Part shown: positions 991 to 54,660 of the stretch, piece by piece
How positions within the stretch are numbered: position 1 is the stretch's first letter
How the letters are laid out: each line of letters begins with the position of its first letter
Source of the DNA: an uncultured Ignavibacteriaceae bacterium
GTDB lineage: Bacteria > Bacteroidota > Ignavibacteria > UBA10030
Length of the DNA stretch: 64,000 nt
Assembly (NCBI GenBank): GCA_964473365.1
Contig: CAYYOV010000007.1
Coordinates: forward strand, 5,015-69,014
Direction: 5' to 3'
Notes under the pieces: generated by a model
The model's database searches: none
What the model was told of the DNA's origin: nothing
Seen by the model: only the letters and a program-made list of their open reading frames with translations
Position numbers and translations under genes: made by a program

Positions 991-2115
991 TTATTCGGAC
1001 AGGCCATATTCCTTGATCTTCCGGTAGAGCGTTCGCTCGCTGATGTTGAGGTCGCGGGCGGCCAGACGACGATTGCCTTCGTGGCGTTCGAGCGCCGACT
1101 GGATCATCTGACGTTCCATCTCGTCCAGCGACAGGGCCGATGCGTCCTGCCCCTGATCCGTCGACGGACGGCGCGCCGGCTGTCTGTCGCCACCAGCGAT
1201 GAGGTCCCGCAATTCCATCAGGTTCGCGCGGATATCGAGCAACGCCCGATAGATCAATTCCCGCTCCGCCTGCTCAACGCTCTTTCCCGTTACGACGGGA
1301 AGGTTCCGTTCCACGTTCACCGACGCTCTTCCTTTCAGATACTTTTCAACCGTTTCGGCTTTCAGACGACGGCCACCCTCCAGGACCAACATGCTCTCGA
1401 GGGCGTTCCGCAATTCCCGGATGTTCCCCGGCCAATCGTATTGCATCAGCAGGTCCGTCGCGTCGTCCGTGAACCCTTCGAACCGTACTCCGCTTCGCTC
1501 GCCGATCTCCTCCACGAAGCGCTCCACCAAGAGCGGCAGGTCTTCGCGGCGATCGCGCAGCGGCGGGAGATGGATATTGACCGACCGCAACCGGAAATAC
1601 AGGTCCGACCGGAACCGTTTCTGTTGCACCTCGAGCTCGAGCGACCGATTGGTGGCCGCAATGACGCGCACGTCAGCCGTCCGGGGCTGCGAAGAACCAA
1701 CGCGGACATACTCCCCATTTTCCAGCACACGCAGGAGCTTCACTTGCGTGGCCAGGGGAAGCTCGCCGATCTCGTCCAGAAAGATCGTACCTCCGTCGGC
1801 AGCTTCGAAATAGCCCTTCCGCTGTTCCACCGCGCTCGTGAATGCCCCCTTCTCATGTCCGAACAGCTCGCTCTCGATCAGTCCCTCGGGGATCGCTCCG
1901 CAGTTCACCGTCACGAGCGGCTTCCCAGCCCGCTTGCTCGCCGCATGGATCGCCCGGGCCACGACCTCCTTGCCTGTGCCGCTTTCGCCCGTCACGAGGA
2001 CGGTGATGTCGGACGGCGCCACTTGCCGGATCGTATCAACGATCTCGAGCATCTCGGCTGAACGTCCGATAAGGCCGGTCTGCTGCTGGAATTCCGAGCG
2101 TGTGGACGGTGACAT
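991..2115 (-). CDS. Sigma-54-dependent transcriptional activator (AAA+ sigma-54 interaction domain plus Fis-type HTH), without an N-terminal receiver or sensory domain (PspF-like architecture)
   Basis: Walker A GESGTGKE, the GAFTGA-region equivalent [15 protein letters not shown], an arginine finger region and a C-terminal HTH ([21 protein letters not shown]). Only ~20 aa precede the AAA+ core. Confidence 0.9.
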
Positions 2116-2156
2116 GGGGAAGTGATCTCGCGTGGCGATCGGGTTCGTGCCTTCGG

Positions 2157-2906
2157 TTACCTCGAAACGGCGATCGCGTCCAGGCCGAACTTCTTCTTGA
2201 TCTCGACCGCGAAGCGCTTGGCCTCATCGATCGTCGGGAATTCCCCCACCCACACCTTGTGGAGCTTCTGCGTTCCGCGGGTGATGGTGAAGATGTTCGA
2301 CGTATACCCTTCCTTCTCGAACTTTCGTTTCAGCTCCTCAGCATTTGAAAGGGCCGAAAACGCCCCAACCTGCAGTGTGAACGCTGCGGAGTATTTTGGC
2401 ACGGGGGCCGCACCCGGCGTCTGCACCGGGATGGGCGTCTCGCGCTGCGGCTCCGACGCCGGCGGTTTTGTCGTCGAAGACGGCTTGGCCGACGGACGCA
2501 CGGGCGTACCTTCCGATGCGTACGCGGAGAACGGATACTCCAGCTTCAGCTGCGCCAACTTTTGCTCGGCCGTCTTGTAGAGACCGACGGACGTGTAGTA
2601 TTGATACAGCCGGAACAGCGCGTCGTCGGCCCATTCGTCCTTCGGAAAATTGTCGACGATGTTCTGATAGATCTTCGCCGCTTCCGTTCCGTCGGGCGTC
2701 AGGACGCCCTGGAGATACATCACCCCCGGGTGGTTCTGGTGAGACGTCATGAGCTGCGGAAGCTCAGCGCTGACCGCATCGGCCTGACCGCTCTCGATCA
2801 TCTCGAGCCGGCGCCGGATGTCGGGCTCGCTCGGACTCGTTTGCGACCACAGAAGCGCCGTGACGAGGACCGACAATATCGTGATGGATGCGATACGCAT
2901 GGTCAC
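2157..2906 (-). CDS. SPOR domain-containing protein with a signal peptide and TPR-like N-terminal region
   Basis: The N-terminus has a signal peptide or TM segment. There is a Pro/Ser/Thr-rich linker. The C-terminal ~75 aa ([31 protein letters not shown]...[25 protein letters not shown]) matches the SPOR peptidoglycan-binding fold pattern. Confidence 0.6.
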
Positions 2907-2912
2907 CTCCGC

Positions 2913-4268
2913 TCAATGGACTGCGGTCGTCTCGCCGAAGAGCGTCGCCGCATTGGCGCGCCGGATGAGGATCCGTGCGATCTGGCCGGGCGCCTCGCCG
3001 TTCCTCGGGAAAACGACCATCTTGTTCGTATCGGTCCGGCCGCAGGCATCGGCCGCGGACCGCTTGCTCTCTCCCTCGACCAGCACGTCGACGACCCTGC
3101 CGACCTCGCGCTGGTTCTTCCGGAATGAGATCTCGCGCTGGACCTCGATGATCTCGTTCAGCCTGCGCATCTTTATCGCCTCAGGCACGGAGTCGGGCAT
3201 TTCCCAGGCTTTCGTGTTCTCCCGCGGCGAATAGGCGAACGTGAACGCACCGTCATATTCGACTTCGCGCAACAGGGCGACGGTGGCGGTGTGATCTTCC
3301 TCCGTTTCCGACGGAAAGCCTGCGATGATGTCCGTCGAAAGGCTCACGCCGGCGATCCGCGTCGTGATCCGCTCGACAAGCCGCCGGTAGTGGTCGACCG
3401 TGTAGGTGCGGTTCATCAATTCGAGGATCCGATCGGACCCTGACTGAACGGGAAGATGAATGTACTTGCACAGGTTGTCGTGCTCAGCGATCGTATCGAT
3501 GAGCTTGTCCGACATATCCTGCGGATGCGACGTCGTGAACCGGACGCGCAGCGAACGATCGATGCGAGCCACGGCGGCCAACAGATCGGCGAAATCGTTG
3601 TCTCCATCGCGGTAGGAATTGACGTTCTGACCGAGCAACGTCACCTCGCGAAATCCTTTGCCGAGAAGGTCCTCGACCTCGCGCACAACGCCAGCGAGCG
3701 AGCGGCTCCGCTCGCGTCCGCGCGTGAACGGCACGACGCAGAACGTGCAGAACTTGTCGCACCCGCGCATGACCGATACCCACGCGCTGACGCCCTCGGT
3801 CCGAAGCGGCAGAATGTCATCGTAGTTCTCGACGCGCGAGAGGCGGACGGCGATACCCCGCTCTCCTTCGAACGCCCGACCAACCAGTTCGGGGAGCCGA
3901 CGGTACTCGTCCGGGCCCACGACGAGGTCGACGTACGATTCGGTCTCCATCAAGTCCTTGCGCAATCGTTCCGCCATACAACCAAGGACGCCGACGACGA
4001 CGCCAGGGTTGTCCTTCTTCAGGTGCTTGAAGTCCCCCAAACGGCCGTACACCCGGGTCTCGGCATTTTCACGGATGGCGCACGTGTTCACGAAGATCAC
4101 GTCTGCGTCGGCAAGACTGTCGGTCCGGCCATATCCAGCAGCGCTCATGACGCTCTGTACCACCTCCGAGTCCGCCAGGTTCATCTGGCAGCCGTAGGTT
4201 TCCACGTAGACCTTTCGCACCGTTTCGCTCATCACCGACATATGGCCTGTAAGGCTGTGAGACGTCAC
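2913..4268 (-). CDS. miaB: tRNA-i6A37 methylthiotransferase MiaB (radical SAM). The ORF begins with GTG at 4268; in-frame ATGs at 4241 and 4232 are alternative starts.
   Basis: It has the KVYVETYGCQMN UPF0004 N-terminal motif, the radical-SAM CxxxCxxC block (CDKFCTFCVVP) and a TRAM-like C-terminus. The size is ~450 aa. Confidence 0.9.
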   Translation of the reverse strand: MTSHSLTGHMSVMSETVRKVYVETYGCQMNLADSEVVQSVMSAAGYGRTDSLADADVIFVNTCAIRENAETRVYGRLGDFKHLKKDNPGVVVGVLGCMAERLRKDLMETESYVDLVVGPDEYRRLPELVGRAFEGERGIAVRLSRVENYDDILPLRTEGVSAWVSVMRGCDKFCTFCVVPFTRGRERSRSLAGVVREVEDLLGKGFREVTLLGQNVNSYRDGDNDFADLLAAVARIDRSLRVRFTTSHPQDMSDKLIDTIAEHDNLCKYIHLPVQSGSDRILELMNRTYTVDHYRRLVERITTRIAGVSLSTDIIAGFPSETEEDHTATVALLREVEYDGAFTFAYSPRENTKAWEMPDSVPEAIKMRRLNEIIEVQREISFRKNQREVGRVVDVLVEGESKRSAADACGRTDTNKMVVFPRNGEAPGQIARILIRRANAATLFGETTAVH

Positions 4269-4450
4269 TTTTGGTTAAAAAAGATAGTGAAGATTTGTCA
4301 GGTCATCAACGAGAGAAAAATCACATTAAGTCCTTTTAATATTAATGATTTGTAAGGACTCTCACTGTGCGTCAGAACTAGAAGATTGTCAAAAAGGCAG
4401 AAAATCAAGAATCATTCGTTGAGATTGAGAATGTCTGGGTGAATTTCCAA
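4269..4450. promoter_or_regulatory. AT-rich (~30% GC) divergent intergenic island between miaB and pta. It probably holds promoters for one or both genes. There is a 7-bp inverted repeat at 4329-4360.
   Basis: The local base composition is very different from the rest of the window: runs of aaaa/tttt, ttaatattaatgatttg, and the inverted repeat agtcctt(N18)aaggact. A ~270-nt GC-normal untranslated stretch then follows before the pta ATG at 4725. Confidence 0.35.
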
Positions 4451-4724
4451 TGATCTTCCAGCGGCACGGAACATGCTCCGTTGGTGCCCATTGCGGCGAT
4501 GGTTGGGTATCTTTGTTCTGTTCAAGGATGCCCCAACCGTGAGGTGCGACAGGATGTGCGACGCTGGAGGACGTCTCCGTTGGAGACCCCCGCCATCCCA
4601 CCCCACGACCCATGGCGCCCCCGAACACATCGCCCAGGGCAGCGAGCCTTGACACCAACCGGCGATGTCAGCCGCCTGGGACCACCTGCATGTCGTATAC
4701 ACACTGAGAACCCTGGAAGCCACC

Positions 4725-5705
4725 ATGAATCCGCTCCTTCAACAGATCCGCCGCAATGCGGCGTCACTGAACAAACACATTGTACTGCCGGATGCGCTCG
4801 ACGAACGTGCGATCGCCGCTGCCCGAATCCTGGTCGACGAGAAGATCGCCCGCGTCACGCTCATCGGACCTGCTGCCGAGGTCCGGGCGAAGGCAGACGC
4901 TTTGAACGTACGGCTCGACGGGATCGGCCTCGTCGATCCGGCGACCGACCCGCGACGAGCGAGCTACGCGGCGGCCTTCGCCGAGATCCGCCGATCGAAA
5001 GGCCTGACGCTCGAGCAAGCGCAGGCCACGATGGCTCATCCGCTCTTCTTTGGGGCGATGATGATCCGCAACGGCGATGCCGACGGCAGCGTCGCCGGGT
5101 CCATCTCGACGACGGGCGACGTCCTCCGCGCGGCTATCCAGGCGGTCGGTGTCGCGGACGGGATCAGCATAGTTTCCTCGTTCTTTCTCATGATCTTTCC
5201 GACGACCACGCTCACGTTCGCCGATTGCGCCGTTGTCCCCGACCCCACAGCCGAGCAACTGGCTGACATCGCCATCGCCTCCGCAGACAATCATCGAAAG
5301 CTGACGGGTGACGCGGCGCGCGTAGCGATGCTCTCCTTCTCGACCAAGGGGAGCGCCGAACATCCACACGTCGACAAGGTTCGATCGGCCACCGACATGG
5401 TTCGGAAGAAGCGTCCCGACCTCAATGTCGACGGCGAACTGCAGCTCGACGCCGCCATCGTCGCCTCCATCGGCGAACGAAAGGCCCCCGGCAGCCCCGT
5501 GGCAGGCAAAGCCAACGTGCTCGTCTTCCCCGACCTGGACGCCGGCAACATTGGATACAAGCTCGCCCAGCGTCTTGGCGGAGCCGAAGCAGTCGGGCCG
5601 GTTGTCCAGGGACTGCGCAAACCCTGCTTCGACCTCTCTCGCGGTTGCAGCGTGGACGACATTGTGAACACATCGGCGATCAATGCGGTGGTGGGAGCAG
5701 TCTAG
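4725..5705 (+). CDS. pta: Phosphate acetyltransferase (phosphotransacetylase)
   Basis: [48 protein letters not shown]..., then GDADGSVAG and a C-terminal [20 protein letters not shown], all typical of Pta (PTA_PTB family). ATG at 4725. Confidence 0.9.
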
Positions 5706-5797
5706 CCGATAGAGGTGTATTCGTGTTCTTCGTGGATCGTCGTTCCGCGTGGTTTGACGATCGAACCTTCCCCCATTCACCGTATCCGGTCCCTGGC

Positions 5798-6304
5798 ATG
5801 TCTCATAAGGTCCAACGCAAGCAGCCCAACAGTCGCATGTGTCTCGTGTGCGGGCTGAAGAACCCCTATGGCCTCAAGGCGTCGTATTACGAACTCGACA
5901 ATGGCGACCTTGTGTGCGTGTTTCAGCCGCAGGAGCATCACCAGTCGTATCCCGGACGCACGCACGGAGGCATCACGGCAGCCGTGCTCGATGAGACGAT
6001 CGGCCGCGCCGTCATGCATCGTCGCGACACTCCGACGTGGGGCGTGACGGTGGAATTCTCGATCAAGTACCGCAAGCCCATTCCATACGGGGAGACCTTG
6101 CGTGCGGTCGGGCGCATCACGAACGATTCCGGCCGACTGTTTGAAGGGACCGGCGAATTGCTGCTCGATGATGGGACCGTCGCAGCAGAAGCGACGGGAA
6201 AGTATCTCAAGATGCCGATCGACAAGATCGCCGACTTTGACGTCGATGCGCAGGAGTGGCGGGTGCACGAACATCCTGACGACCCTACGGAGATCGACGT
6301 ATAG
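5798..6304 (+). CDS. PaaI-family (hotdog fold) thioesterase
   Basis: Hotdog thioesterase pattern (RMCLVCGLKNPYGLK ... HGGITAAVLDETIGRAV ... tail). ~168 aa, the usual size for this family. The upstream part of ORF 5645..6304 overlaps the pta 3' end, so I trimmed the start to the internal ATG at 5798. Confidence 0.7.
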   Translation: MSHKVQRKQPNSRMCLVCGLKNPYGLKASYYELDNGDLVCVFQPQEHHQSYPGRTHGGITAAVLDETIGRAVMHRRDTPTWGVTVEFSIKYRKPIPYGETLRAVGRITNDSGRLFEGTGELLLDDGTVAAEATGKYLKMPIDKIADFDVDAQEWRVHEHPDDPTEIDV

Positions 6305-6356
6305 GCACCAGGGGCGATCGCCGAGATCCTCTCATGTCTCACCGACGTGATCCATA

Positions 6357-7520
6357 GTGGATTCCACCCATCGATACGCTTTTCTCGACCTCTATCGGGG
6401 TCTTATCGTGGTATTCATGCTCGAGGGGCATCTCGTCCGCCAGCTCATGGGAATGGCCTGGCAGGAGGGACCGGCGTTCCGTGCGCACGAGCTGTTCCAC
6501 GGTCTGACGGCCCCCGGGTTCTTGTTTGGGGCCGGGTTCACGTTCGCCATCGCCACGCAGCGAAAGTCGCACCTCCTGAAGGGCCTGTCCTGGCCCGTGC
6601 TGCGGCGGCTCTGGCGGGGCGCGTTACTGATGCTTGTCGGATACGCATTGCACCTCCCGTTCCTTTCCCTGTCGAAGACCATTCACGGCTCAAGTCCCGT
6701 CGAATGGGGCGCATTCCTGCGCTTCGATGTCCTCCAGCTGATCGGGCTGTCGCTCATTCTGTTGCGGCTTCTCTACCTCGTCGCCCGAGACGACCGGCAA
6801 TTTCTCGCGCTGGTGTCCACGGGAACGCTTTTCACGGTAATGCTGGCTCCGCACGTCTGGAACGGCGTCGGACCGTCGGCTCCGCTCTGGATCTCAACGG
6901 CGCTCACTGGCCGGTACGGGTCACCGTTCCCCGTCTTCCCGAACATCGCCTTTGTCCTCTCGGGTGTCGTCGCATCTTGGGGTTTTTTGCGGGCCCGTCA
7001 GGACGACGCCGAGCATTCGTATATGCGCTGGCTGCTGGGGGCGGGAGTTCTTTTCATCGCGGTCGGATGGCTGTTCGATCTACTTCCGATAGCGTCGAAC
7101 GACACTGCCGATTATTGGACGAGCGCTCCGAGTTTCTTCTGGGTGCGACTCGGACTACTGTTGGTGGGGATGGGTGGACTGTGGTTCCTCGAGCAAGGGG
7201 TCGTTGGGACCGCGGGCGAGCCGTACCTTCTGCCGCGATGGCTTACGATGCTTGGCGTCGAATCGTTGTTCGTGTACATCGCGCACCTCGTGCTGCTGTA
7301 CGGCTCAGTATTGAACCCCGAAGACAATCTGACGGCGTGGCTCGGCCGCGAGCTGGCCCCATGGATGGCGATGGCACTGGTGGTCCCGTTCGTCGTCGTG
7401 AGCGCCGTCGGTGCGCGTGCGTGGCACACGCTGAAGAAACGTCACGGGCCGTGGATGCGGCTGGCGTATTGGTGGATGGGATTGTCCTTTGCCGGAGAGC
7501 TCGTGTTGCGGGCATACTGA
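6357..7520 (+). CDS. DUF1624 / HGSNAT-like acyltransferase-family integral membrane protein
   Basis: GTG start. The N-terminal motif RYAFLDLYRGLIVVFMLEGH matches the R-x-x-x-D-x-x-RG...ML..H signature of DUF1624. About 10 predicted TM helices. The overlapping ORF 6347..7606 in another frame is Arg-rich and looks like a spurious shadow ORF. Confidence 0.6.
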   Translation: MDSTHRYAFLDLYRGLIVVFMLEGHLVRQLMGMAWQEGPAFRAHELFHGLTAPGFLFGAGFTFAIATQRKSHLLKGLSWPVLRRLWRGALLMLVGYALHLPFLSLSKTIHGSSPVEWGAFLRFDVLQLIGLSLILLRLLYLVARDDRQFLALVSTGTLFTVMLAPHVWNGVGPSAPLWISTALTGRYGSPFPVFPNIAFVLSGVVASWGFLRARQDDAEHSYMRWLLGAGVLFIAVGWLFDLLPIASNDTADYWTSAPSFFWVRLGLLLVGMGGLWFLEQGVVGTAGEPYLLPRWLTMLGVESLFVYIAHLVLLYGSVLNPEDNLTAWLGRELAPWMAMALVVPFVVVSAVGARAWHTLKKRHGPWMRLAYWWMGLSFAGELVLRAY

Positions 7521-7699
7521 CCCCGCGACACGTCGGGGAGCTCACGCGTCCCACCGTCTATTTCCACAAACTCATTAAGTCTGACTTGCGTGTGATTTCA
7601 TCTTGACACGCGCTGTGGGCCGGACTATATTCGCAGAGCGAAGCGACAACGTTTTTCGCTGACGATTCGTTCGACGTTCACGTACTTCATCCGTTCGCT

Positions 7700-8314
7700 A
7701 TGAGGGGACGTTTCACTCGACGCCGCTGGCTTGCCGCCGGCACGGCGCTCGTCATCACCGGCGGTATTGCGTTCGTGCTCCTGCTGGCAGCATTCGACCG
7801 CTCTACCATTGAAGGCTCCATCCGTCCGACGCTTCAATTGCACACACCCGACGGTGGTCTGGTCCGGCTGATCTCGCCATACGGACGCCGGCATCTCCTC
7901 GTGTTCTTCCTGGTATCGTGCCCCCATTGCCATGACGTGTTGAACCACATGCGGCGCCTGAGGCCGCACCTTGCTTCGTGCGATCTCTTCGCCGTATCGC
8001 TCAGCGACTCAGTTGCGACAGCGTCCTACACGGCCACATGGAACGATCCGTTTCCTGTGTGGACCATGTCCCCCCATGATGCGCTGTTGCAGCTCGGTAT
8101 CCGGCGGGTACCCAGCCTTCTCTTTGTGAGCGAGACCGACCGCGTCGACTGGGTGCGCACCGGAGCGAGGTCATTCCTGGAGGATAGCGTAATGATCGTC
8201 CGCTACTGCGACGGGGGCTCGTCGGGCCTTTCGGCGGTGGATTCCTTGGGGGAGGATGGGTCGCCGACGGTTCTCGGCGACGCCTCCGGGCAGGGCGGCC
8301 GACAACGATATTGA
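7700..8314 (+). CDS. Membrane-anchored thioredoxin-fold thiol:disulfide oxidoreductase (CPHC active site, DsbA-type motif)
   Basis: N-terminal TM anchor (LAAGTALVITGGIAFVLLLAAF), then LLVFFLVSCPHCHDV, i.e. a CxxC motif after a beta-strand as in thioredoxin-fold oxidoreductases. Confidence 0.6.
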   Translation: MRGRFTRRRWLAAGTALVITGGIAFVLLLAAFDRSTIEGSIRPTLQLHTPDGGLVRLISPYGRRHLLVFFLVSCPHCHDVLNHMRRLRPHLASCDLFAVSLSDSVATASYTATWNDPFPVWTMSPHDALLQLGIRRVPSLLFVSETDRVDWVRTGARSFLEDSVMIVRYCDGGSSGLSAVDSLGEDGSPTVLGDASGQGGRQRY

Positions 8315-8487
8315 TCGAACGGCAGTTCAGCGCCGCTTTCTGTCCGCTGAACCGCCCGGTAGCGTGCAACGCCGGTCTTCGGTCGGCCCCGGAGGTCAGT
8401 GACGCGCACTCTCGGACGGATGGGCCGCAGCGGGCGGCCGGCGGCGATCACGATCCATTCACCGATCTTTTCAGAAGGAGGTTCATC

Positions 8488-8796
8488 ATGGTACGTTCTG
8501 CTCTGTTCATCCTTGCCGCGATTGTCGTCGGCATATTCGGTCTCGAGCGACCAGCGCCCGTTGCAGCCGCCACGCCAGCGGTCTCTGTGCGTCTGAGTAC
8601 CGCCGAGACGGATTGTATCGTCGGCGGCGAAGCTGGTTGTCTCGAAGTTATGGCTGGGGCATATGGAGGATGTGTCGAGGCGAATTTCGACCCTGAGCGT
8701 CCTGAGACTGCATCGGCGTTCATCGGATGCGGGGCCGTGGGGCTCTGGAGCGGCGTTGCATGCGCAGTGACTTGGCTCTGGAGCCTAGTCTTCTAA
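8488..8796 (+). CDS. Small (102 aa) exported Cys/Gly-rich protein with hydrophobic N- and C-terminal segments; function unknown
   Basis: ATG at 8488 with AGGAGG 8 nt upstream. The sequence is MVRSALFILAAIVVGIFGLERPAPVAAATPAVSVRLSTAETDCIVGGEAGCLEVMAGAYGGCVEANFDPERPETASAFIGCGAVGLWSGVACAVTWLWSLVF. It has 6 Cys, and the stretch LSTAETDCIVGG resembles the LSxxELxxIxGG double-glycine leader consensus. Confidence 0.45.
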   Translation: MVRSALFILAAIVVGIFGLERPAPVAAATPAVSVRLSTAETDCIVGGEAGCLEVMAGAYGGCVEANFDPERPETASAFIGCGAVGLWSGVACAVTWLWSLVF

Positions 8797-8843
8797 CCAT
8801 CTCGCTCAGTTCGTTCATCCATCACACGGAGGTTTGATTGGCC

Positions 8844-9368
8844 ATGCGACAGATCCTCTTGATCACGATGTTGACCGTTGTGGGTGTCGTTGCTGGTTCT
8901 CAGATGACCCACCATTGGGCCGATCCGATACGGTTGATCCAGCTCGATGTTCACGTGAACAACGCTCAACGATCCATCTTGCGCGATCCGCCCGCGAGGC
9001 TTGTGATCGATACGACGACGGGAAGGCGCATGGAATTCAGGGGCTATTTCGCCCATGAACGGAGGGAGGAGTGGTGGGGGGTCCCTGTCAGGGTTCGGTA
9101 CGCTTTCTCGGCCAAGGACAGCCTCATGGGGTATGTGCTCGCGACGTACATTGAGTCCACGCGGCTCTCGCGGTCGCCTGTCGGGCTGTGCGATTCATTG
9201 TGGGATCGATTGAAGCGATCGCACGGGACGCCGCAGAAGGAATCCACGACACGCTCGTTTGAGCAATGTGTATGGGATCTGCAGAATGGCAAGCTCGTCG
9301 CGACCCGTTCGGGTGGTGTTGCAAAGACGATGGTGATCTCTTTCACGAAACGACCCGCAACGAAATAG
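8844..9368 (+). CDS. Hypothetical secreted protein (175 aa)
   Basis: ATG at 8844 with GGAGG 11 nt upstream. N-terminal signal peptide (MRQILLITMLTVVGVVAGSQ). No recognisable domain. Confidence 0.45.
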   Translation: MRQILLITMLTVVGVVAGSQMTHHWADPIRLIQLDVHVNNAQRSILRDPPARLVIDTTTGRRMEFRGYFAHERREEWWGVPVRVRYAFSAKDSLMGYVLATYIESTRLSRSPVGLCDSLWDRLKRSHGTPQKESTTRSFEQCVWDLQNGKLVATRSGGVAKTMVISFTKRPATK

Positions 9369-9412
9369 CCGTTCCCTTTTTCCACAAACTTCCGCATCTT
9401 TGAACCGCCCGG

Positions 9413-10381
9413 GTGACTGTGCCCCGGGCGCGTTCATTGATGGACACCGACATGACCATGCGCCGGAATCTCCTCGCTCTTCTCGTCGTTGTTTGCACGA
9501 CGACATCCGTTCTCCTCGCCCAGTCCTCGAGTACGCTGCGCGTTGACGGGGCGACACTGTTCTACCGTGAATACGGCTCCGGGGAGCCGCTCGTTATCGT
9601 CGGCGGGCTTGCCGGCGCATCGGGCGACTATCTCGTTCCCCTCGCCCAAGAATTCGGTAAGCGCTATCGAACCTTCCTGATCGATATGCGGGGCACGGGC
9701 GGATCGACGATCAGCCGACTCGATACGGCAAACGTGAGTCCCCGCCGTGTTGCCGAGGACCTCGAGAGCCTGCGCGCCGAAAAGAAGATCGCTCGCTGGA
9801 TCGTCGTGGGTCACGCCTTCGGCGGGAGCGTTGCACTCACCTACGCCACGATCTATCCAAAAGGCATTCGTGCGTTGTTCTTGGTGGGACCGACGGGCAT
9901 CGACCTGCGGTTCTTTGACTACTATAACCTCAACGTTGGCGCACGAATGTCGAAGGAAGATTCGTCCCTCTACAACGAATGGCGGCACGTGGGGTCCTGG
10001 TCTCCACAGAAGCCGAAGGCCCGGCTGGAACAGTTCCGGGCGACCTTGGGTGGGTACTTCGTGAATCGCCGCGCGCTCGAAAGCGTGCGCGCTACTATCA
10101 CGGATCGGACGTACGTCGGTGTCGTCGCCGAGACCTACTGGGGGGCGTTCATGGACCATTCCCCCCGGATGCACGCCATCCTGCCAACGTTCAAGGCGCC
10201 TGTGATCATCATCCAGGGCGACAACGACCCCGTCGATCGAAGAACGGCCGACCGCATCCGCACGGCCCTGAAGAGCGCGAAATACAAAGAGATCAAGAAT
10301 TGCGGCGCATTTCCGTGGCTTGAAAAGCCGAAGGAATTCTGGTCTGTGGCCAACGTCTTCCTCAAGACCCTCCCGAAGTAG
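9413..10381 (+). CDS. Secreted alpha/beta-fold hydrolase
   Basis: Signal peptide, an HG-type oxyanion motif region (LVIVGG), the nucleophile elbow GHAFGGS (GxSxG-like with Ala at the nucleophile-adjacent position), and C-terminal Asp/His region spacing typical of the fold. The start is ambiguous, with several in-frame ATGs at 9413-9458. Confidence 0.7.
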   Translation: MTVPRARSLMDTDMTMRRNLLALLVVVCTTTSVLLAQSSSTLRVDGATLFYREYGSGEPLVIVGGLAGASGDYLVPLAQEFGKRYRTFLIDMRGTGGSTISRLDTANVSPRRVAEDLESLRAEKKIARWIVVGHAFGGSVALTYATIYPKGIRALFLVGPTGIDLRFFDYYNLNVGARMSKEDSSLYNEWRHVGSWSPQKPKARLEQFRATLGGYFVNRRALESVRATITDRTYVGVVAETYWGAFMDHSPRMHAILPTFKAPVIIIQGDNDPVDRRTADRIRTALKSAKYKEIKNCGAFPWLEKPKEFWSVANVFLKTLPK

Positions 10382-10410
10382 CCCGGTCACCGGGTGGATG
10401 TACACACGAA

Positions 10411-10447
10411 CGCCCCATCCGATCCGGACGGGGCGTTTGCGTTCTCA
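10411..10447 (+). terminator. Rho-independent terminator between the convergent hydrolase and SDR genes
   Basis: cgccccatccg-atc-cggacggggcg is an ~11-bp stem with one mismatch, followed by tttgcgttctc. A short A/C-rich stretch (cacacgaa) precedes it on the plus strand. Confidence 0.55.
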
Positions 10448-10500
10448 TTGTTTCGCTGCTTCCTCCAACGGCTGACCCTGACATCCGTCGGACCTTCTCT

Positions 10501-11277
10501 TCACTCCAACTTCTTGTGAACCAGCGACGGAGACGCTTGCGCGGTGGGAAGGATGAGGATCTCGGCGATCTGGACGTGCGGCGGTGCAGCCGCGCAATAG
10601 TACACGGCGTCGGCGACATCCGATGGTGATAACGGCGTGTAGCCCTGATAGACCTTGCTGGCACGCTCCTGATCGCCGCGGAACCGCACGTCGCTGAACT
10701 CGGTCTGGACGAGCCCCGGATCGACCGTGCAGACCCGCAGCGGCGTGTCGACGAGGTCCATCCGCAATCCCCGCGTGATCGCATCCACCGCGTGCTTCGT
10801 CGCGCAATAGACGTTGCCTCCGATGTACACGTCGTGCCCCGCGATCGAGCCGATATTGATGATCGTCCCGCGTTTCCGTTGCACCATCCCTGGAATGACG
10901 ACCTTGCTCACGTACAACAGTCCCTTCACGTTGGTGTCGATCATCTCTTCCCAATCGTCGAGCTTTCCTTCGTGAAGTTTATCGAGCCCCCGGCTGAGCC
11001 CCGCATTGTTGACGAGCACGTCGATGCCGTGCCAAGCCTCTGGGAGCTTGTTGAATGCCTGCGAGACCGCTTTGGCATCGCGGACGTCGAGTTCTAGGAG
11101 AAACGTCTCCGTGCCATATCGCTCTTTCAGCTCGGCCGCCAGCTCCTGAAGTCGCGCCTTACGCCGTGCTGTGAGGATGAGCCGTGAACCGGCCGCCGCG
11201 AACCGTTCCGCACAGGCCCGGCCGATGCCGCTCGAGGCGCCGGTGATGAGTACTAACAAATGAGGAATGCTCGTCAT
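10501..11277 (-). CDS. Short-chain dehydrogenase/reductase (SDR), YdfG/serine 3-dehydrogenase-like
   Basis: TGASSGIG cofactor motif, NNAG, and the catalytic S...Y..ATK. ATG at 11277 overlaps the upstream gene's stop (ATGA). Confidence 0.85.
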   Translation of the reverse strand: MTSIPHLLVLITGASSGIGRACAERFAAAGSRLILTARRKARLQELAAELKERYGTETFLLELDVRDAKAVSQAFNKLPEAWHGIDVLVNNAGLSRGLDKLHEGKLDDWEEMIDTNVKGLLYVSKVVIPGMVQRKRGTIINIGSIAGHDVYIGGNVYCATKHAVDAITRGLRMDLVDTPLRVCTVDPGLVQTEFSDVRFRGDQERASKVYQGYTPLSPSDVADAVYYCAAAPPHVQIAEILILPTAQASPSLVHKKLE

Positions 11278-12410
11278 ACGCTGCGTCCTTTCAGAATAGG
11301 CCACCGGTCCACGATCTCGCCGTCGCGGACCACAATGTACTCGTCATGATGCGGAACGGCCAGGCACGAGTGGTGCTCCAGAACGCGCACGCGGTCGCCC
11401 ACCGGAAACATCCCGTCGAGCGACGCTGGTCCTTCGGCAACAAGCTTGCCGTGCTCCTGCGATAGCGAGCCCATGTGGATATGGGCGTGGAGGCGCTTCC
11501 GGTTGTAGTCCTCGAAGATGGGTCCCATTCCCATCGGGTTGGCCAAATGCGTTGGACCGAGGTCTTTCGAGAGTGCCAGCGCCCCTGCGTCGGTGATGAC
11601 GTGTTTGGCTCCCGGCTGATGTGAGATGACGCTCGTCAGGACCGTCAGCGCACAGTCGTCCACGCCGCAGACGCCGAGCATCGCCATGGTGTAGTCGTGG
11701 AATGCATAATTGCCGGGCCGGATCTCATCTATGCCGTCATAGTGATCGATGACGGTCACTGCAGGCGTCGAACCAACGCTCACGAATGGAACACGGTAGC
11801 CCTTCGCTCGCATCCGTTCGGCAAAGGTTACCATGATGTCGCGTTCCTCGCGCGCCGCAGCCAGGATCTCGTCGCGGTTCTTCCCGTAGTACGCATGTCC
11901 CGAGTGTGAGAGTATGCCGTCAAACTGAAGGACGGTCGATTCATTCAACTTCTGAACGAGCTCCTCAGCCAGCGGCGACGACGGATCGACACCGGCCCGA
12001 TGATTGCCGCAGTCGACCTTGAGCCATGTGTGGATCTTCTGGTTCGCGCTCCGTGCAGCCTTGTCGACATGTCCCAGTGCCTCGAGGCTGTCGATGAGGA
12101 CGCGGAAGGTGATCCGACCGGCAAGCTCCGCGGCGCGTGTGGCGTAGATCGGGGGGATGGGGAAGGCCCACAGTATGTCGGTGAAGCCCGCGTCAGCGAA
12201 TTGCTTCGCCTCGTAGAACGTCGAGACCGTAACGCCCTGAGCGCCCAGCCGCTCCTGCCATCGGGCGACCTGGATGCATTTGTGGGTCTTCAGATGGGGC
12301 CGCAGACGGACCTTGAGCCGGTTAGCGTGGTCCTGCATGCGTTGCAGGTTCCGCTCGAGGATCTCGCTATCGAGCAGCAGCGCGGGGGTGGGTAACGAAG
12401 CGAGTGACAT
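11274..12410 (-). CDS. PLP-dependent alanine-racemase-fold enzyme of the DSD1 / D-threonine-aldolase-like family (D-serine or D-hydroxy-amino-acid dehydratase/aldolase-like)
   Basis: N-terminal TPALLLD...L..N..RM......LRPHLKTHKC is the hallmark of this family. ~378 aa. It carries the C-terminal D-serine-dehydratase-like domain. Confidence 0.75.
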   Translation of the reverse strand: MSLASLPTPALLLDSEILERNLQRMQDHANRLKVRLRPHLKTHKCIQVARWQERLGAQGVTVSTFYEAKQFADAGFTDILWAFPIPPIYATRAAELAGRITFRVLIDSLEALGHVDKAARSANQKIHTWLKVDCGNHRAGVDPSSPLAEELVQKLNESTVLQFDGILSHSGHAYYGKNRDEILAAAREERDIMVTFAERMRAKGYRVPFVSVGSTPAVTVIDHYDGIDEIRPGNYAFHDYTMAMLGVCGVDDCALTVLTSVISHQPGAKHVITDAGALALSKDLGPTHLANPMGMGPIFEDYNRKRLHAHIHMGSLSQEHGKLVAEGPASLDGMFPVGDRVRVLEHHSCLAVPHHDEYIVVRDGEIVDRWPILKGRSV

Positions 12411-12422
12411 GCCGATTCCTCG

Positions 12423-14432
12423 TTAGAACGATAGCAATCGGTCCAGGGTCTCGGCGAGACGCGCGCGGCCCAGGAAGGACTGTTCCAGCGTCGGGTGGAA
12501 GGGAACGGGGGTCTCGAGCGATCCCAGCCGCATGACGGGAGCGTCGAGGTGAGTGAAGCATGATTCGCCGATCGTCGCCGCGACGTCGGACGCGAACGAG
12601 CCGGTCAGCGTGTCTTCTGTCAGGACAAGCACACGTCCCGTCTTGCGCGCAGAGGCGAACACGGTCTCGCGGTCCCACGGTACGAGCGTCCGCAGGTCGA
12701 CGACTTCGATCGAACGACCACTCCGCTCCGCAGCCTCCAAGGCCCAATGAACGGCCCAGCCGTACGTCACGATTGTCGCGTCCGTTCCCTCCCGCACCAC
12801 GCCGGCGACGCCCAGCGGCAGTGAATAATACGCATCCGGTACCAGTCCTTCGAGGCTCCGGTACAGATACTTGTGTTCGAAGTAGAGGATGGGGTTCGGT
12901 TCGGCAAGGCTGGCCGTCAGCAGACCCTTTGCGTCGAATGGCGTCGAAGGATACACCACCTTGAGCCCCGGAACATGTGTGAACCACGACTCGGTGCTCT
13001 GCGAATGGAACGGTCCCGCTCCGACGCCCGCCCCGGTCGGCATGCGCACGACGACGTTGACAGCATGGCCCCACCGGTAATGGGTCTTCGCTAGGTTATT
13101 CACGATCTGGTTGAAACCGCAGGTGACAAAGTCGGCGAACTGCATCTCCATCATCGCCGGACGGCCGGCCATCGACAGCCCCAGCGCCGCTCCCACGATC
13201 GCCGATTCACACAGGGGCGTGTTACGCACACGCTCCCGGCCGAACTGCTCCACAAAACCTTCCGTCACTTTGAACACACCGCCATACTCGGCGATGTCCT
13301 GCCCCATGAGCACCAATTTTGGATCACGCTCCATTGCCTGACGAAGGCCGTCCTGGATCGCGTTCACAAAGCGCCGATGCGATTGGTGCGTCAGGTCGGG
13401 GGCAACGGGAGGTGGGACCGCTGCTGCATACACATCCTGCAGTTCCGTATCGATACTGGCCTGGATCGCGGGTCCCGATGTGGAGCGGTCCCAGGCCTCG
13501 TCGATCGTCGCCTTGAGTCGCGTGCGTGCATCAGCTACGCGTTCGGCCGTGATCACGCCGGTCTGCACGAGATGACGCTCGAAGTTCTCGACAGGGTCTT
13601 TCGCCTTCCAGGCGGAAATGAGCTCGGTGGGCACATATTTCACGCCCGAAGCCTCCTCATGCCCGCGCATGCGGAATGTCATGGCCTCCAGGAGAACCGG
13701 CCGACGCGTCTTTCGCACACGTTCGGCTACGTCGCTCACGGTTCGATACACTTCGACGATGTTGTTCCCGTCGACCTGAACGCCTTCAATACCGTAGCCG
13801 GCGGCCTTGTCCACAAAGTATCTGTGTCGGAACTGTTGTGACGAGGGTGTTGAAAGTCCGTAGCCGTTGTTCTCGACGACGAAGATCACCGGCAGGTCCC
13901 ACACGGATGCGACGTTGATCGCCTCGTGGAAATCCCCTTCGCTCGCACCACCGTCACCCGAGAAGACCATCGCAAGGTCGTCCGATCCGTCGAGTACGCT
14001 GGCCAACGCCAGGCCATCGGCCACGCCGAGCATCGCGCCGAGGTGCGAGATCATCCCCACAATGCGGTGTTCAAGTGTCCCGAAATGGAACGAGCGGTCG
14101 CGCCCGTTCGTGTAGCCATCCGGCCTTCCTTCCCACTGGGCAAAGAGCCGAGGGAGTGGAACGCGTCGTGAGGTGAAGATGCCGAGGTTGCGGTGAAGCG
14201 GCAGAAGATAGTCGGAATCGCGGAGCGCCATCGCGCAACCGACGGCGATCGCCTCCTGACCGATCCCCGAGAACCATTTGCTGAGCTTACCCTGACGGAG
14301 CAGGATGAGCATCTTCTCTTCGATCAGCCGGGGAAGGAGCATCCCTTCATACAATGAGATGAGCCGGTCGGCAGACAGGCTGCCGGCTTCAAACTGCAGG
14401 GGCATCGACGATATGGCGCGGGACGAGCTCAC
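12423..14432 (-). CDS. 2-oxoacid dehydrogenase E1 component with fused alpha and beta subunits (TPP-dependent)
   Basis: The N-terminal half has the E1-alpha TPP motif GDGGASEGDFHEAINVASVWDLPVIFVVENNGYGLSTP. The C-terminal half has an E1-beta / transketolase-like pyrimidine-binding domain and C-terminal domain. I see no E2 or E3 gene in the window. Confidence 0.8.
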   Translation of the reverse strand: MSSSRAISSMPLQFEAGSLSADRLISLYEGMLLPRLIEEKMLILLRQGKLSKWFSGIGQEAIAVGCAMALRDSDYLLPLHRNLGIFTSRRVPLPRLFAQWEGRPDGYTNGRDRSFHFGTLEHRIVGMISHLGAMLGVADGLALASVLDGSDDLAMVFSGDGGASEGDFHEAINVASVWDLPVIFVVENNGYGLSTPSSQQFRHRYFVDKAAGYGIEGVQVDGNNIVEVYRTVSDVAERVRKTRRPVLLEAMTFRMRGHEEASGVKYVPTELISAWKAKDPVENFERHLVQTGVITAERVADARTRLKATIDEAWDRSTSGPAIQASIDTELQDVYAAAVPPPVAPDLTHQSHRRFVNAIQDGLRQAMERDPKLVLMGQDIAEYGGVFKVTEGFVEQFGRERVRNTPLCESAIVGAALGLSMAGRPAMMEMQFADFVTCGFNQIVNNLAKTHYRWGHAVNVVVRMPTGAGVGAGPFHSQSTESWFTHVPGLKVVYPSTPFDAKGLLTASLAEPNPILYFEHKYLYRSLEGLVPDAYYSLPLGVAGVVREGTDATIVTYGWAVHWALEAAERSGRSIEVVDLRTLVPWDRETVFASARKTGRVLVLTEDTLTGSFASDVAATIGESCFTHLDAPVMRLGSLETPVPFHPTLEQSFLGRARLAETLDRLLSF

Positions 14433-34026: not shown

Positions 34027-35292
34027 TTACGTCTTCTGCTGCTTTTTTTTGGCGGCTGGAAAGAGGATGTTATTCAGAATGAGTCGGTACCCCGGCGACG
34101 TGCGATGGAGCGACAGGTCGGTCGGCGGATCGCCAACTGCATGCTGATAGTCCTCGGGATCGTGGCCGCTGTACCACGTGAAGGTTCCCCGGCCGAAGTT
34201 GCCGTGAAGATACCGCACCTCCTCCGTCCCGTCCCGCTCCGCCAGCACCGTTACCGTCCGCTTGATGGCTCCTTTCCGGAATGCCGTCGTCTGGCCCATG
34301 AAGCCCTTCACGATCGACACGTGATTCTGCGTCAGCATCGTAGGAACGGGGTCGTGCTTCGCCGAAAATTCGAAGAGCGTAAAATAGTCAGTGTTCGGGT
34401 CCCGGATCGGCGGCGGGTCTGATGGCGGCAGGTCGATGTCGGAGTACTCGTACCGATAGGGGTTCATGTCGAGCGCGAAGTTCTCGAATGCCAGGGTCTT
34501 TCGGAAGTCGAGTTTCGACGCTGCCTGCGGGTCGGTTGGATCTCCGTCGAACATCACGTCAGCAATATCCACTCCTTCCGCGGCCAACGCGATGTCGTAC
34601 GAGTCGGTCGCGGAGCACATGGCAAACATGAATCCGCCGTTGCCGACGAAGTCGCGAATGGAGCGCGCGACCGCTTTCTTTTCCTCCGAGACCTTGGCGT
34701 ACCCCAGCCGTCGGGCTTCGCGTTCATACATCGCTTGTTGCTCCACGTACCACTGCGCCGTCCTGAAGTTGGCGAAGAATTTTCCGTACTGTCCGGTGAA
34801 GTCCTCGTGATGCAGATGCAGCCAGTCGTATTCGGCTAGCTTGCCTGACAACACTTCTTCGTCCCATACCTTCGTGTATGGTACTTCCGCGTATTCGAGC
34901 GCGAGGGTCACGGCGTCGTCCCACGGCTTGAAGTTGGGAGGGGCGTAGACAGCGATCTTCGGTGCCTTCTCGAGTCGTACGACGTCGGTATTCGCATCTT
35001 CGCGCTGAACATCCGCCAACACCTGTGCCGCCTGACCTGCAGAGAGGCTTTCGAACGACACACCCCGAACGCGGCATTCCCGGGCCACCGGCTCTGCCTG
35101 GTCGATGAGAAATGAGCCGCCCCGATAGTTCAGCAGCCAGTCGACCTGCCCATTCTTCTCCAGCACCCAAAACGCCACGCCATACGCCTTCAGGTGGTTC
35201 GTTTGCGTCAGATCCATAGGAATGAGCACTTTCGGCTGCGCCAACGCGCTTCCCGCAAGAGCGAAAACAAGCACAACGCACCAGCGCTTCAT
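34027..35292 (-). CDS. Hypothetical secreted protein (421 aa), translationally coupled to the upstream TPR protein
   Basis: Signal peptide (MKRWCVVLVFALAGSALAQP). No confidently recognised domain. The ATG at 35292 overlaps the TPR gene's stop (ATGA). Confidence 0.45.
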   Translation of the reverse strand: MKRWCVVLVFALAGSALAQPKVLIPMDLTQTNHLKAYGVAFWVLEKNGQVDWLLNYRGGSFLIDQAEPVARECRVRGVSFESLSAGQAAQVLADVQREDANTDVVRLEKAPKIAVYAPPNFKPWDDAVTLALEYAEVPYTKVWDEEVLSGKLAEYDWLHLHHEDFTGQYGKFFANFRTAQWYVEQQAMYEREARRLGYAKVSEEKKAVARSIRDFVGNGGFMFAMCSATDSYDIALAAEGVDIADVMFDGDPTDPQAASKLDFRKTLAFENFALDMNPYRYEYSDIDLPPSDPPPIRDPNTDYFTLFEFSAKHDPVPTMLTQNHVSIVKGFMGQTTAFRKGAIKRTVTVLAERDGTEEVRYLHGNFGRGTFTWYSGHDPEDYQHAVGDPPTDLSLHRTSPGYRLILNNILFPAAKKKQQKT

Positions 35293-41817: not shown

Positions 41818-41939
41818 ATCGGCTTGCATCCGGCAGCGTCATTTCCTACATTGAGCGGCGAATCGTGCGATTCGCCGTTTCTTTTTATACCCGGGTCCGC
41901 GGCTCCATCCCCCCTTCCCACATGGTGCAGGTGATCCTC

Positions 41940-52094: not shown

Positions 52095-52261
52095 ACAACC
52101 TCCAAAGACACGACGACCGAACCTCCGCGCCAGGGCAGAGATCCGGTCTGGCAGACGGAGACAGCGCGAGCGTTACGTACGACCACAGCACTCACACTGT
52201 CACAAACGTCCGATAGGCGGCCTTCCTTTCTGTTCCAACGTACGATTCCGACCCCGAAGAA

Positions 52262-52753: not shown

Positions 52754-52856
52754 GCGTTGATGGCCGTGTGCGATCGCTCTCCGGCCAACCGTACCCCTCT
52801 GTGAGGTGCCGACCGCCTCAGCGGTCGTGTAATGCTGTCGAGCTCGAAAAGCCGCT

Positions 52857-54620: not shown

Positions 54621-54660
54621 GGGGGTGGTATGGTACGAAGGAAACGGGTGAAAGGAAATC

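Follow-up and report, generated by a model that had tools for sequence, protein, structure and literature searches.

What is known of C39 'double-glycine' proteases comes almost entirely from those that form a cytoplasmic domain of an ATP-binding cassette (ABC) exporter. Among the peptides made with a double-glycine (GG) leader, the glycocins, such as sublancin 168 (encoded by sunA-sunT-bdbA-sunS-bdbB), have five Cys, a helix-loop-helix structure with nested disulfides and oxidoreductase genes in their loci; their Cys are equally spaced on both helices (Cx6C), a dedicated glycosyltransferase attaches a sugar to the sulfur of the fifth Cys, and SunT, a peptidase-containing ABC transporter (PCAT), exports the peptide. 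Here we describe a gene cassette found in a 64,000-nucleotide stretch of contig CAYYOV010000007.1 from an uncultured Ignavibacteriaceae bacterium (the whole stretch is called the window below). The cassette is built around a small open reading frame (ORF) at positions 8488-8796, whose product may be a precursor that is processed in the cell envelope, where a C39 peptidase would cut it after a GG site, into a helical-hairpin peptide stapled by disulfides, a reading to which we give a probability of about 0.45.

The bacteroidetocin loci (class IIf; Coyne et al., 2019) encode, next to a GG peptide, a thiol oxidoreductase of their own, presumably required because Bacteroides are devoid of general Dsb machinery, and comprise a set of four genes, for a protein with five transmembrane (TM) segments, the GG peptide, the thiol oxidoreductase and a PCAT (PMC6671954). 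FapD, a C39 protease of the Fap amyloid system of Pseudomonas, is exported through Sec to the periplasm, where it is active on an unknown substrate (Rouse et al., 2017; PMC5557850). Gallocin A from Streptococcus gallolyticus has been modelled as disulfide-stapled alpha-helical hairpins, and its locus encodes BlpT, a thioredoxin-domain surface protein (PMC10100652).

The features of the window to be set against these systems are listed here.

7603-7631, plus strand: candidate sigma-70-like promoter, TTGACA-17-TATATT (11 of 12 matches, from a consensus scan only)
7700-8314, plus strand: membrane-anchored thiol-disulfide oxidoreductase, 204 aa, active site C74-P-H-C77
8328-8449, plus strand: RNA element of about 120 nt, conserved and structured, in the leader 5' of the small ORF, with no Rfam match
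8475-8481, plus strand: Shine-Dalgarno (SD) sequence AAGGAGG, 6 nt 5' of the ATG at 8488
8488-8796, plus strand: small gene of the putative precursor, 102 aa plus stop, founding member of an unannotated family
8488-8544, plus strand: residues 1-19, n-region and h-region of Sec type, with M-x-R followed by about 15 hydrophobic residues; signal peptide or uncleaved anchor
8593-8628, plus strand: residues 36-47, LSTAETDCIVGG, GG-type recognition motif, with the proposed C39 cut after G47
8629-8793, plus strand: residues 48-102, candidate for the mature peptide, with 55 aa, a net charge of -5 and four invariant Cys
8844-9368, plus strand: third cassette gene, 174 aa, signal peptide …VAGS↓Q, always directly 3' of the small ORF
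52262-52753, minus strand: C39 cysteine peptidase of 163 aa, stand-alone and apparently exported (match to PF03412 with E=1e-21, above the gathering score)

The cassette shares with the bacteroidetocins hosts of the Fibrobacteres-Chlorobi-Bacteroidetes (FCB) group, a small peptide with four Cys after the GG and an adjoining oxidoreductase gene. However, bacteroidetocins have a 15-aa N-terminal GG leader without a Sec segment, a PCAT, a 5-TM protein and a location in variable regions, whereas the window cassette has a Sec-type segment, a separate, apparently exported C39, no transporter and a core syntenic locus. It holds two of the four bacteroidetocin genes (peptide and oxidoreductase), with neither PCAT nor multi-TM protein, and no sequence similarity was found between the small-protein family and the bacteroidetocins. 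Like FapD, the C39 of the window stands alone and has a catalytic Cys; an N-terminus that looks like an export signal is present as well, and its proposed site of action is again the periplasm, with a substrate brought there by Sec. Unlike FapD, it is not accompanied by Fap genes, has a single co-encoded candidate substrate with a near-canonical GG motif and finds its best matches among PCAT peptidase domains. Members of the PA2778 family and FilB are also listed in NCBIfam as exported stand-alone C39 proteins. Gallocin A differs in its Gram-positive host, classical GG leader, PCAT, single disulfide per peptide, two-peptide composition and immunity peptide. In comparison with the glycocins, the window cassette contains no glycosyltransferase or PCAT gene, its Cys spacing is Cx10C, and the fifth Cys lies upstream of the GG. 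The GG motif, the C39 peptidase, the thioredoxin-fold helper and the stapled hairpin are each of an already known kind; their combination into a Sec-type precursor with a separate, apparently exported C39, no transporter, a core location and an RNA leader was not found described in the literature.

The small-protein family

The ORF at 8488-8796 is genuine and evolves under purifying selection: with respect to its 90% identical orthologue in locus L001, it shows 28 synonymous and 10 non-synonymous differences, corresponding to a ratio of non-synonymous to synonymous changes per site (pN/pS) of 0.125. The first-pass annotation of the window had proposed a 102-aa ORF with a strong ribosome-binding site; the SD sequence is indeed present at the expected position, and its core GGAG is invariant in 11/11 aligned loci, the version found in the distant locus L027 (see below) being GAAGGAG.

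By word-indexed and exhaustive profile searches, a family of about 22 distinct proteins of 102-108 aa was gathered, all coming from metagenomes or metagenome-assembled genomes (MAGs) and none of them annotated; one of the MAGs is labelled 'uncultured Ignavibacteriaceae', and the whole family amounts to about 25 proteins. Each member begins with M-x-R/K and 13-16 hydrophobic residues, followed by a poorly conserved linker. The seeming loss of the hydrophobic N-terminus in one protein, P0002, was rejected as an artefact, the gene starting 8 nt from the contig end. Similarity within the family reaches down to 23% identity with the Cys still invariant. In the 22-sequence alignment M1, R3, C43, G47, C51, C62, C81, C92 and W96 are invariant, and L36, E40, D42, V45 and G46 (L-12, E-8, D-6, V-3 and G-2 with respect to the proposed cut) are conserved in at least 90% of the sequences. 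No relevant match was obtained for the 22 members in Pfam or NCBIfam (E<=10), no bacteriocin, leader, ComC or Nif11 model being among the matches, and the family profile matched nothing in the PDB sequences.

The protein of the window contains five Cys (43, 51, 62, 81 and 92), four of which follow the GG, and not six as counted at first. A search for homologues with conserved Cys spacing, suggested along with that count, gave a clear result, since the spacing C43-x7-C51-x10-C62 ... C81-x10-C92 is fixed across the family. Insertions and deletions are confined to the C62-C81 loop and to the linker upstream of the motif, while the Cx10C spacing never varies; the segment after the GG has 54-60 aa, always four Cys and a net charge between -2 and -8. 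In a Kyte-Doolittle scan residues 1-19 are strongly hydrophobic and the Trp-rich C-terminal third moderately so, in agreement with the N-terminal hydrophobic segment and the Trp-containing tail that had been noticed from the sequence.

The double-glycine motif and the N-terminus

The segment LSTAETDCIVGG fits the leader consensus L-12 S-11 x x E-8 L-7 x x I-4 x G-2 G-1 at five of the six positions, as reported in the first-pass annotation, and the motif is conserved across the approximately 22 homologues, giving the family consensus L-T-x-x-E-[A/T/M]-D-C-[I/L]-V-G-G↓[K/E/Q]-A-x-C (here and below arrows mark actual or proposed cleavage sites). The block formed by residues 34-51 is the best conserved of the family, with a mean majority fraction of 0.71 as compared to 0.35-0.54 for the other regions. 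The doubt initially expressed, that the match may be coincidental, can be set aside: a GG with at least four of the five other consensus positions occurs once in the window proteome (49 genes, 19,597 residues), whereas 0.01 occurrences per proteome are expected from shuffled proteomes, and the motif falls in the most conserved block of the family. Moreover, in a six-frame scan the small ORF alone joins an N-terminal hydrophobic segment, [ILVMA]xGG and at least two downstream Cys. In all members the motif sits behind the Sec-type hydrophobic segment and a variable linker, unlike hydrophilic GG leaders, which occupy the extreme N-terminus (about 15-30 aa).

Gln is found at position +1 after an A/S-x-A/S site in 6 or 7 of the 7 other exported proteins of the window (LWS↓Q, AGS↓Q, LLA↓Q, ALA↓Q, VVA↓Q and LTA↓Q are examples), which corresponds to the 'Bacteroidetes Q-rule' of signal-peptidase-I substrates (PMC5837995). 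The proteins with Gln(+1) are encoded at 2157-2906 (minus), 8844-9368 (plus), 9452-10381 (plus), 34027-35292 (minus), 39906-41075 (plus) and 51075-52094 (minus); the rule is thus seen in the window although the nearest labelled relative belongs to the Ignavibacteriota. No Gln(+1) signal-peptidase site is present in the small-protein family and, since this feature of the other exported proteins of the organism is missing, an uncleaved signal anchor with its N-terminus inside (N-in) is favoured for residues 1-19. Alternatively, a signal peptide may be cleaved near A28.

The stand-alone C39 peptidase and the distant locus L027

The catalytic Gln, Cys46 (CGPAAL), His (DHFVVF) and Asp (RDPS) are all present in the C39 protein of the window, whose N-terminus, judged by eye, is lipobox-like (MSRMPIHLHTLLFAVIVLTTG↓C, that is …LTTG↓C). 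In the PDB it matches a single entry at E<=0.001, the 'double glycine motif' protease LahT150, on which Cys, His and Asp are aligned and the Gln can be placed by eye. The other best match is the NHLM ABC peptidase domain (E=1e-14), followed by weak NCBIfam matches to C39_FapD, PA2778 and FilB. A stand-alone C39-like lipoprotein had been placed at 52262-52753 in the first-pass annotation; position and peptidase assignment stand, the latter with the Pfam match given above, and the gene is to be read on the minus strand. It is located directly downstream of dnaX (52857-54620), its other neighbours being lon and the gene of a UPF0164-type outer-membrane protein, and no Fap operon genes (fapA-F) occur at the locus. 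A Pfam scan of large proteins of the window revealed no ABC, PCAT or membrane fusion protein (MFP), the other large ORFs being judged from sequence, and no PCAT or ABC gene was found in about 15 related loci or in L027.

The locus L027 lies on a 392-kb metagenome contig (52% GC) and was located by a covariance model of the RNA element (35 bits, E=1e-5). On one strand it shows the order lon, dnaX, oxidoreductase, C39, RNA, small protein, third protein, Yip1-domain protein. The C39 peptidase is therefore encoded here between the oxidoreductase and the small GG protein, which lends substance to the earlier suggestion that the C39 of the window may belong with the peptide system. The products of L027 are the following.

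L027 oxidoreductase: 194 aa, anchored, CPHC
L027 C39: 185 aa, stand-alone, one N-terminal TM segment (PF03412, 5e-29)
L027 small protein: 101 aa, signal peptide, ...PLDKTTLNAAVGG↓MISC..., four Cys after the GG
L027 third protein: 170 aa, signal peptide
L027 5288-5971, minus strand: Yip1-domain multi-TM protein (PF04893, 3.5e-13)

L027 is syntenic with the region of the window between 45 and 57 kb, Lon being 76%, DnaX 54% and the UPF0164-type outer-membrane protein 65% identical. The two C39 proteins are 34% identical (E=5e-20), both lying in the slot directly after dnaX, and the two oxidoreductases are 25% identical (E=8e-10), both with CPHC; the third proteins give a marginal alignment only. 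The L027 segment LDKTTLNAAVGG (L-12, VGG, C+4) is placed on the family motif by hhalign, although weakly (P=0.005). The L027 small protein keeps the signal segment, L-12, L-7, VGG and C+4, and has lost C-5 and the twin-Cx10C spacing. Because L…VGG and C+4 survive at this distance while C-5 and the twin Cx10C do not, the comparison argues for the GG site itself as the functional constant.

The block shared by the two loci, with lon, dnaX, C39 and the gene of the UPF0164-type (PorV-like) outer-membrane protein, spans 51075-57084 (minus) in the window and 1692-12813 (minus) in L027, where the oxidoreductase gene, the RNA, the small ORF, the third gene, the Yip1-domain gene and two more genes are inserted in it. 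The arrangement suggests that the cassette was relocated in the lineage of the window. The Yip1-domain protein of L027, which has no counterpart in the window by tblastn, recalls the uncharacterised 5-TM protein required in bacteroidetocin loci.

Predicted fold and disulfide pairing

An AlphaFold2 model of the small protein was built with a 21-sequence alignment. It shows an N-terminal helix (residues 3-17) and a helix-turn-helix (51-66 and 72-101) with a predicted local distance difference test (pLDDT) score of 82-87, so that the part after the GG is modelled as an antiparallel two-helix hairpin with a hydrophobic, Trp-rich C-terminus. The predicted helices carry equally spaced Cys pairs, symmetric about the turn, as in cysteine-stapled alpha-hairpins (twin CxnC). 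Since both Cx10C pairs (51/62 and 81/92) are symmetric about a shared midpoint, residue 71.5, as an antiparallel stapled hairpin requires, the geometry points to two nested disulfides, C51-C92 and C62-C81. A Foldseek search of the model against the PDB returned E-values all above 1.

The oxidoreductase, the third gene and the putative operon

The product of 7700-8314 has an Arg-rich N-terminus, a TM helix at residues 10-32 and SCPHC at 73-77, and the first description of the gene directly upstream of the small ORF, as one for a membrane-anchored thioredoxin-fold protein with a CPHC site, is thus accurate. In nine oxidoreductase orthologues C-[P/S]-H-C is invariant, and likewise H76 and the cis-Pro loop R136-V-P138. 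The window protein matches ResA in NCBIfam (9e-05) and, as sole PDB match, 3c71, the ResA of B. subtilis (2e-04); its Pfam match is below the gathering score, and its orthologues match AhpC-TSA/Redoxin. No DSBA match was found for it in Pfam or NCBIfam, the CPHC tetrapeptide alone being shared with DsbA. By these matches the enzyme is a ResA/TlpA-like thioredoxin-fold protein and not a member of the DsbA family, and the 'DsbA-type' label that it first received has to be replaced. It resembles ResA, TlpA and CcmG in the N-terminal anchor, the periplasmic thioredoxin fold, the CxxC site and the cis-Pro loop, and differs from them in its dipeptide, which is P-H and not E-P, V-P or P-T, in having no cytochrome c maturation genes nearby, and in its apparent dedication to a small co-encoded protein. 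Since the P-H dipeptide in the CxxC site is what makes DsbA strongly oxidising, the CPHC enzyme is read as a probable oxidase.

Co-conservation of the two genes, which had been proposed as a check, is general: the CPHC gene adjoins the small ORF wherever upstream DNA is present. In fact, the order thioredoxin-fold gene, small ORF, gene for a 166-195-aa signal-peptide protein without known domain is found in every locus with enough DNA (L001, L004, L005, L006-8, L009-11, L012, L013-15, L048 and L049). The trio is retained where the flanks differ, as in L006, which is without the thioesterase, HGSNAT-like and hydrolase genes that flank the trio of the window. The third protein has no match in Pfam, NCBIfam or the PDB; a word-indexed homologue search gave two proteins, and an AlphaFold2 model made with two sequences reached a pLDDT of 36. 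One subfamily shows an overlap of 16-25 nt between the first two ORFs of the trio. Here the reading frame of the oxidoreductase is prolonged by gene callers by 50-70 codons through the RNA element (L006 9222-10016, L013 641-1453, L015 6305-7084), and the resulting tail, 'PTAC.AG…DGPRQAAG', is probably due to conservation of the RNA at the nucleotide level and not of the protein.

The promoter candidate at 7603-7631 sits 69 nt 5' of the oxidoreductase start. No other promoter-like site and no terminator-like site was found by the consensus scan in 7450-9500, the gap between the oxidoreductase gene and the small ORF included, which suggests that the oxidoreductase gene, the RNA, the small ORF and the third gene form one operon with a single transcript. 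Bacteroidota use a promoter consensus different from the sigma-70 type, and a sigma-70-type promoter at this position would be of note if the lineage is close to Bacteroidota.

Upstream of the cassette, overlapping ORFs in different frames (6347-7606 and 6357-7520, both plus) cover the gene of the HGSNAT-like membrane protein; the frame from 6357 has a PF07786 match, while the 419-aa ORF at 6347-7606, with a GC content at third codon positions (GC3) of 0.46, is probably spurious. Elsewhere in the window, an 832-aa protein (41865-44363, plus) and a 389-aa signal-peptide protein (39906-41075, plus), both without a Pfam match at E<=0.001, are encoded 5' of a CHASE2 adenylate/guanylate cyclase gene (44495-46696).

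The structured RNA leader

An RNA element precedes the small gene in every locus examined. In addition to the window copy, the following copies were placed.

L001: 6924-7044
L004: 293-412
L005: 784-904
L006: 9838-9959
L009: 9841-9961
L012: 2434-2552
L013: 1266-1387
L015: 6906-7027
L028: 158-279
L030: 1120-1241
L039: 669-790
L027: 7031-7152, minus strand

Between the window (8315-8487) and L001 only 4 of 173 positions differ (2.3%), as compared to 15-35% at synonymous sites, and the element is still recognisable where the small proteins are only about 25% identical. A cmscan of 7400-9000 against Rfam (E<=10) gave only a noise match to 5.8S rRNA. A 14-bp outer helix was identified by RNAalifold; in a model-based alignment of 12 sequences, 8 of its 14 pairs show double-sided changes, and 95% of the cells are paired, against 31-53% when the partners are slid by 1-3 columns. 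Furthermore, the 12 sequences, folded independently, all give the same rod-like hairpin of about 115 nt, with Z-scores from -1.4 to -4.8. The apical loop is (U/C)CGG(C/U)CC; complementary to it is a GGGCCG in the 3' strand of the hairpin, which is invariant and in most cases forms part of an unpaired bulge. The covariation comes mostly from three lineages and may be considered good but not overwhelming support for the structure. The hairpin stops about 40 nt 5' of the start codon and is followed by a CA-rich unstructured stretch and then by the conserved SD sequence.

The possibility that the spacer is coding sequence was rejected, as a 1-nt indel shifts the frame between close relatives, and the spacer is in frame with the oxidoreductase gene in one subfamily, in frame with the small ORF in the window and non-coding in L027, where it follows C39. 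A pattern scan of metagenomes for the RNA gave 32 loci, the real ones being L028, L030, L036, L039 and the distant L027; two further candidates, L020 and L040, were inspected and turned out to be unrelated GC-rich matches. As to its role, the element could be a 5' stabiliser, a processing site uncoupling the precursor mRNA from that of the enzyme, a protein-binding site or a riboswitch.

Proposed maturation and alternative readings

On the basis of these data, the following pathway can be proposed. The trio of genes and the structured RNA would be co-transcribed, and the small ORF would be translated from its strong SD sequence behind the conserved RNA hairpin. The N-terminal hydrophobic segment would carry the precursor through Sec and would probably stay in the membrane as an N-in signal anchor. 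The membrane-anchored CPHC enzyme of ResA/TlpA fold would then form C51-C92 and C62-C81, stapling the two helices together, and the exported stand-alone C39 would cut after G46-G47, giving an anionic, hydrophobic peptide of about 55 aa. Once released, this peptide might act as a bacteriocin-like, signalling or envelope-active factor.

A number of observations weigh against this pathway or against parts of it. Concerning the enzyme, the cassette of the window has no C39 gene of its own and lies 44 kb from the C39, which adjoins dnaX; C39 is not adjacent in approximately 14 of the 15 loci, all close relatives included, so that the link of C39 to the system draws on one distant locus and on positional orthology. 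Concerning the site, the most divergent member, P0022, reads ...ALECVLSG, with SG for GG and without L-12 and E-8, while retaining the five Cys; among the findings that had been named in advance as adverse, a homologue without the GG is seen in this one clear exception, whereas the Cys are kept in all members of the family. Moreover, C43 (-5) is invariant inside the 'leader', which is unusual, position -7 is A/T/M and not Leu, and residues 20-47 have a pLDDT below 50 in the AlphaFold2 model. Since conservation runs beyond the GG (A+2, C+4), the motif block could be a structural or redox site instead of a cleavage site. Concerning the product, the genes are core, syntenic, single-copy and vertically inherited, and do not form a variable island; no immunity gene or exporter is present, and the product is anionic, all of which is atypical for bacteriocins, and no route across the outer membrane is evident. 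Because the product is anionic, core-encoded and without an immunity gene, a housekeeping envelope role or a signalling role is at least as likely as that of a toxin.

Cleavage by the C39 is nevertheless ranked above the alternative that survives best, in which the small protein is not cleaved and serves as a two-helix membrane protein, with its N-terminal anchor and C-terminal helix, or as a type-I membrane protein, either a redox partner or a substrate. The ExDCxVGGxxxC block would in this case be a redox-active or ligand-binding Cx7C loop on which the neighbouring oxidoreductase acts, the small protein and the third protein would form an envelope thiol-redox module, and the C39 of L027 would act elsewhere. 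Such a protein would accommodate the conservation on both sides of the GG, the invariant C43, a member like P0022, the separation of C39 from most loci and the hydrophobic character of both protein ends, which show small-xxx-small patterns; core, syntenic, single-copy genes also suit a housekeeping envelope function. It does not account for a motif that fits the C39 recognition consensus far beyond chance, nor for the survival in L027 of the GG site and not of the Cx7C pair, where the gene between those for the oxidoreductase and the small protein specifies an apparently exported C39 with its catalytic residues intact. Furthermore, Asp or Glu occurs within the C-terminal helix of most members and basic residues do not flank it, so that it would be a poor stop-transfer anchor. 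Taken together, we consider an uncleaved membrane protein less likely than cleavage by the C39, though with a considerable share of the probability.

Far less probable is a canonical class II bacteriocin or microcin, from which a PCAT encoded elsewhere would remove residues 1-47 in the cytoplasm during export. The five consensus positions of the motif, a product with the size and the Gly and Cys content of class II microcins, and the oxidoreductase genes of the bacteroidetocin and gallocin loci all recall such systems, and the first-pass annotation had taken the locus for a possible bacteriocin-like or signalling peptide system. However, M-x-R and about 15 hydrophobic residues precede the motif in every member, indicating Sec and not a PCAT; no PCAT, ABC or MFP gene was seen among the Pfam-scanned large proteins of the window or in the approximately 15 related loci; no member matches a bacteriocin or leader model of Pfam or NCBIfam; and the sole C39 that can be tied to the cassette stands alone and carries a putative export signal. 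It is because no PCAT was seen in these scanned proteins and loci, and because the precursor has a Sec-type hydrophobic start, that maturation is proposed to take place in the periplasm and that the canonical bacteriocin is considered unlikely.

A similarly slim chance is given to a Cox17-like metallochaperone, whose hairpin would serve as a periplasmic ligand of Cu(I) or of some other thiophilic metal while the TlpA-like protein keeps its thiols reduced. A twin-Cx10C hairpin with a fifth Cys 8 residues upstream resembles the coiled-coil-helix-coiled-coil-helix (CHCH) proteins, the extra Cys and the acidic residues might serve as metal ligands, the oxidoreductase fold is of the TlpA/ResA type, TlpA being known to keep the thiols of Sco and CoxB reduced, and the top Foldseek rows, none of them significant (every E-value is above 1), include respiratory-complex subunits. 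On the other hand, the CPHC dipeptide points to an oxidase and not to a reductase, no oxidase, Sco or copper genes occur in the loci examined, and the linkage with C39 and the conservation of the GG would be left unexplained. Finally, a chance ORF, or an incidental reading frame next to a conserved RNA, is a notion to which the shortness of the ORF, its absence from database annotation and the better DNA conservation of the adjoining non-coding RNA might give rise, but it is effectively refuted by the family alignment, in which the protein is conserved down to 23% identity with invariant Cys, and by the pN/pS value with its 28 synonymous changes, as well as by the conserved SD sequence and by the end of the RNA element about 40 nt before the start codon.

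Implications

Exported stand-alone C39 proteins such as FapD are active, yet their substrates and recognition rules are unknown, and the cassette offers a concrete candidate pairing, of one C39 with one Sec-type precursor and one oxidase. Taken to its full extent, the proposal would be that of a Sec-dependent periplasmic GG maturation, with an anchored pro-peptide, a CPHC oxidase and an exported C39 producing a twin-Cx10C stapled hairpin, an intercellular signal or toxin of Ignavibacteria-like bacteria, under the control of the RNA, and that the cassette is the first recognisable substrate-enzyme set of this kind; in this complete form the proposal is rather doubtful. If the pairing of enzyme and precursor is borne out, it would mean that an envelope-located maturation route exists for ribosomal peptides, one that escapes genome-mining tools, which look for a PCAT and a leader at the N-terminus. 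The locus also adds a small-protein family with a predicted twin-Cx10C hairpin and a candidate new cis-acting RNA motif from a poorly studied uncultured lineage.

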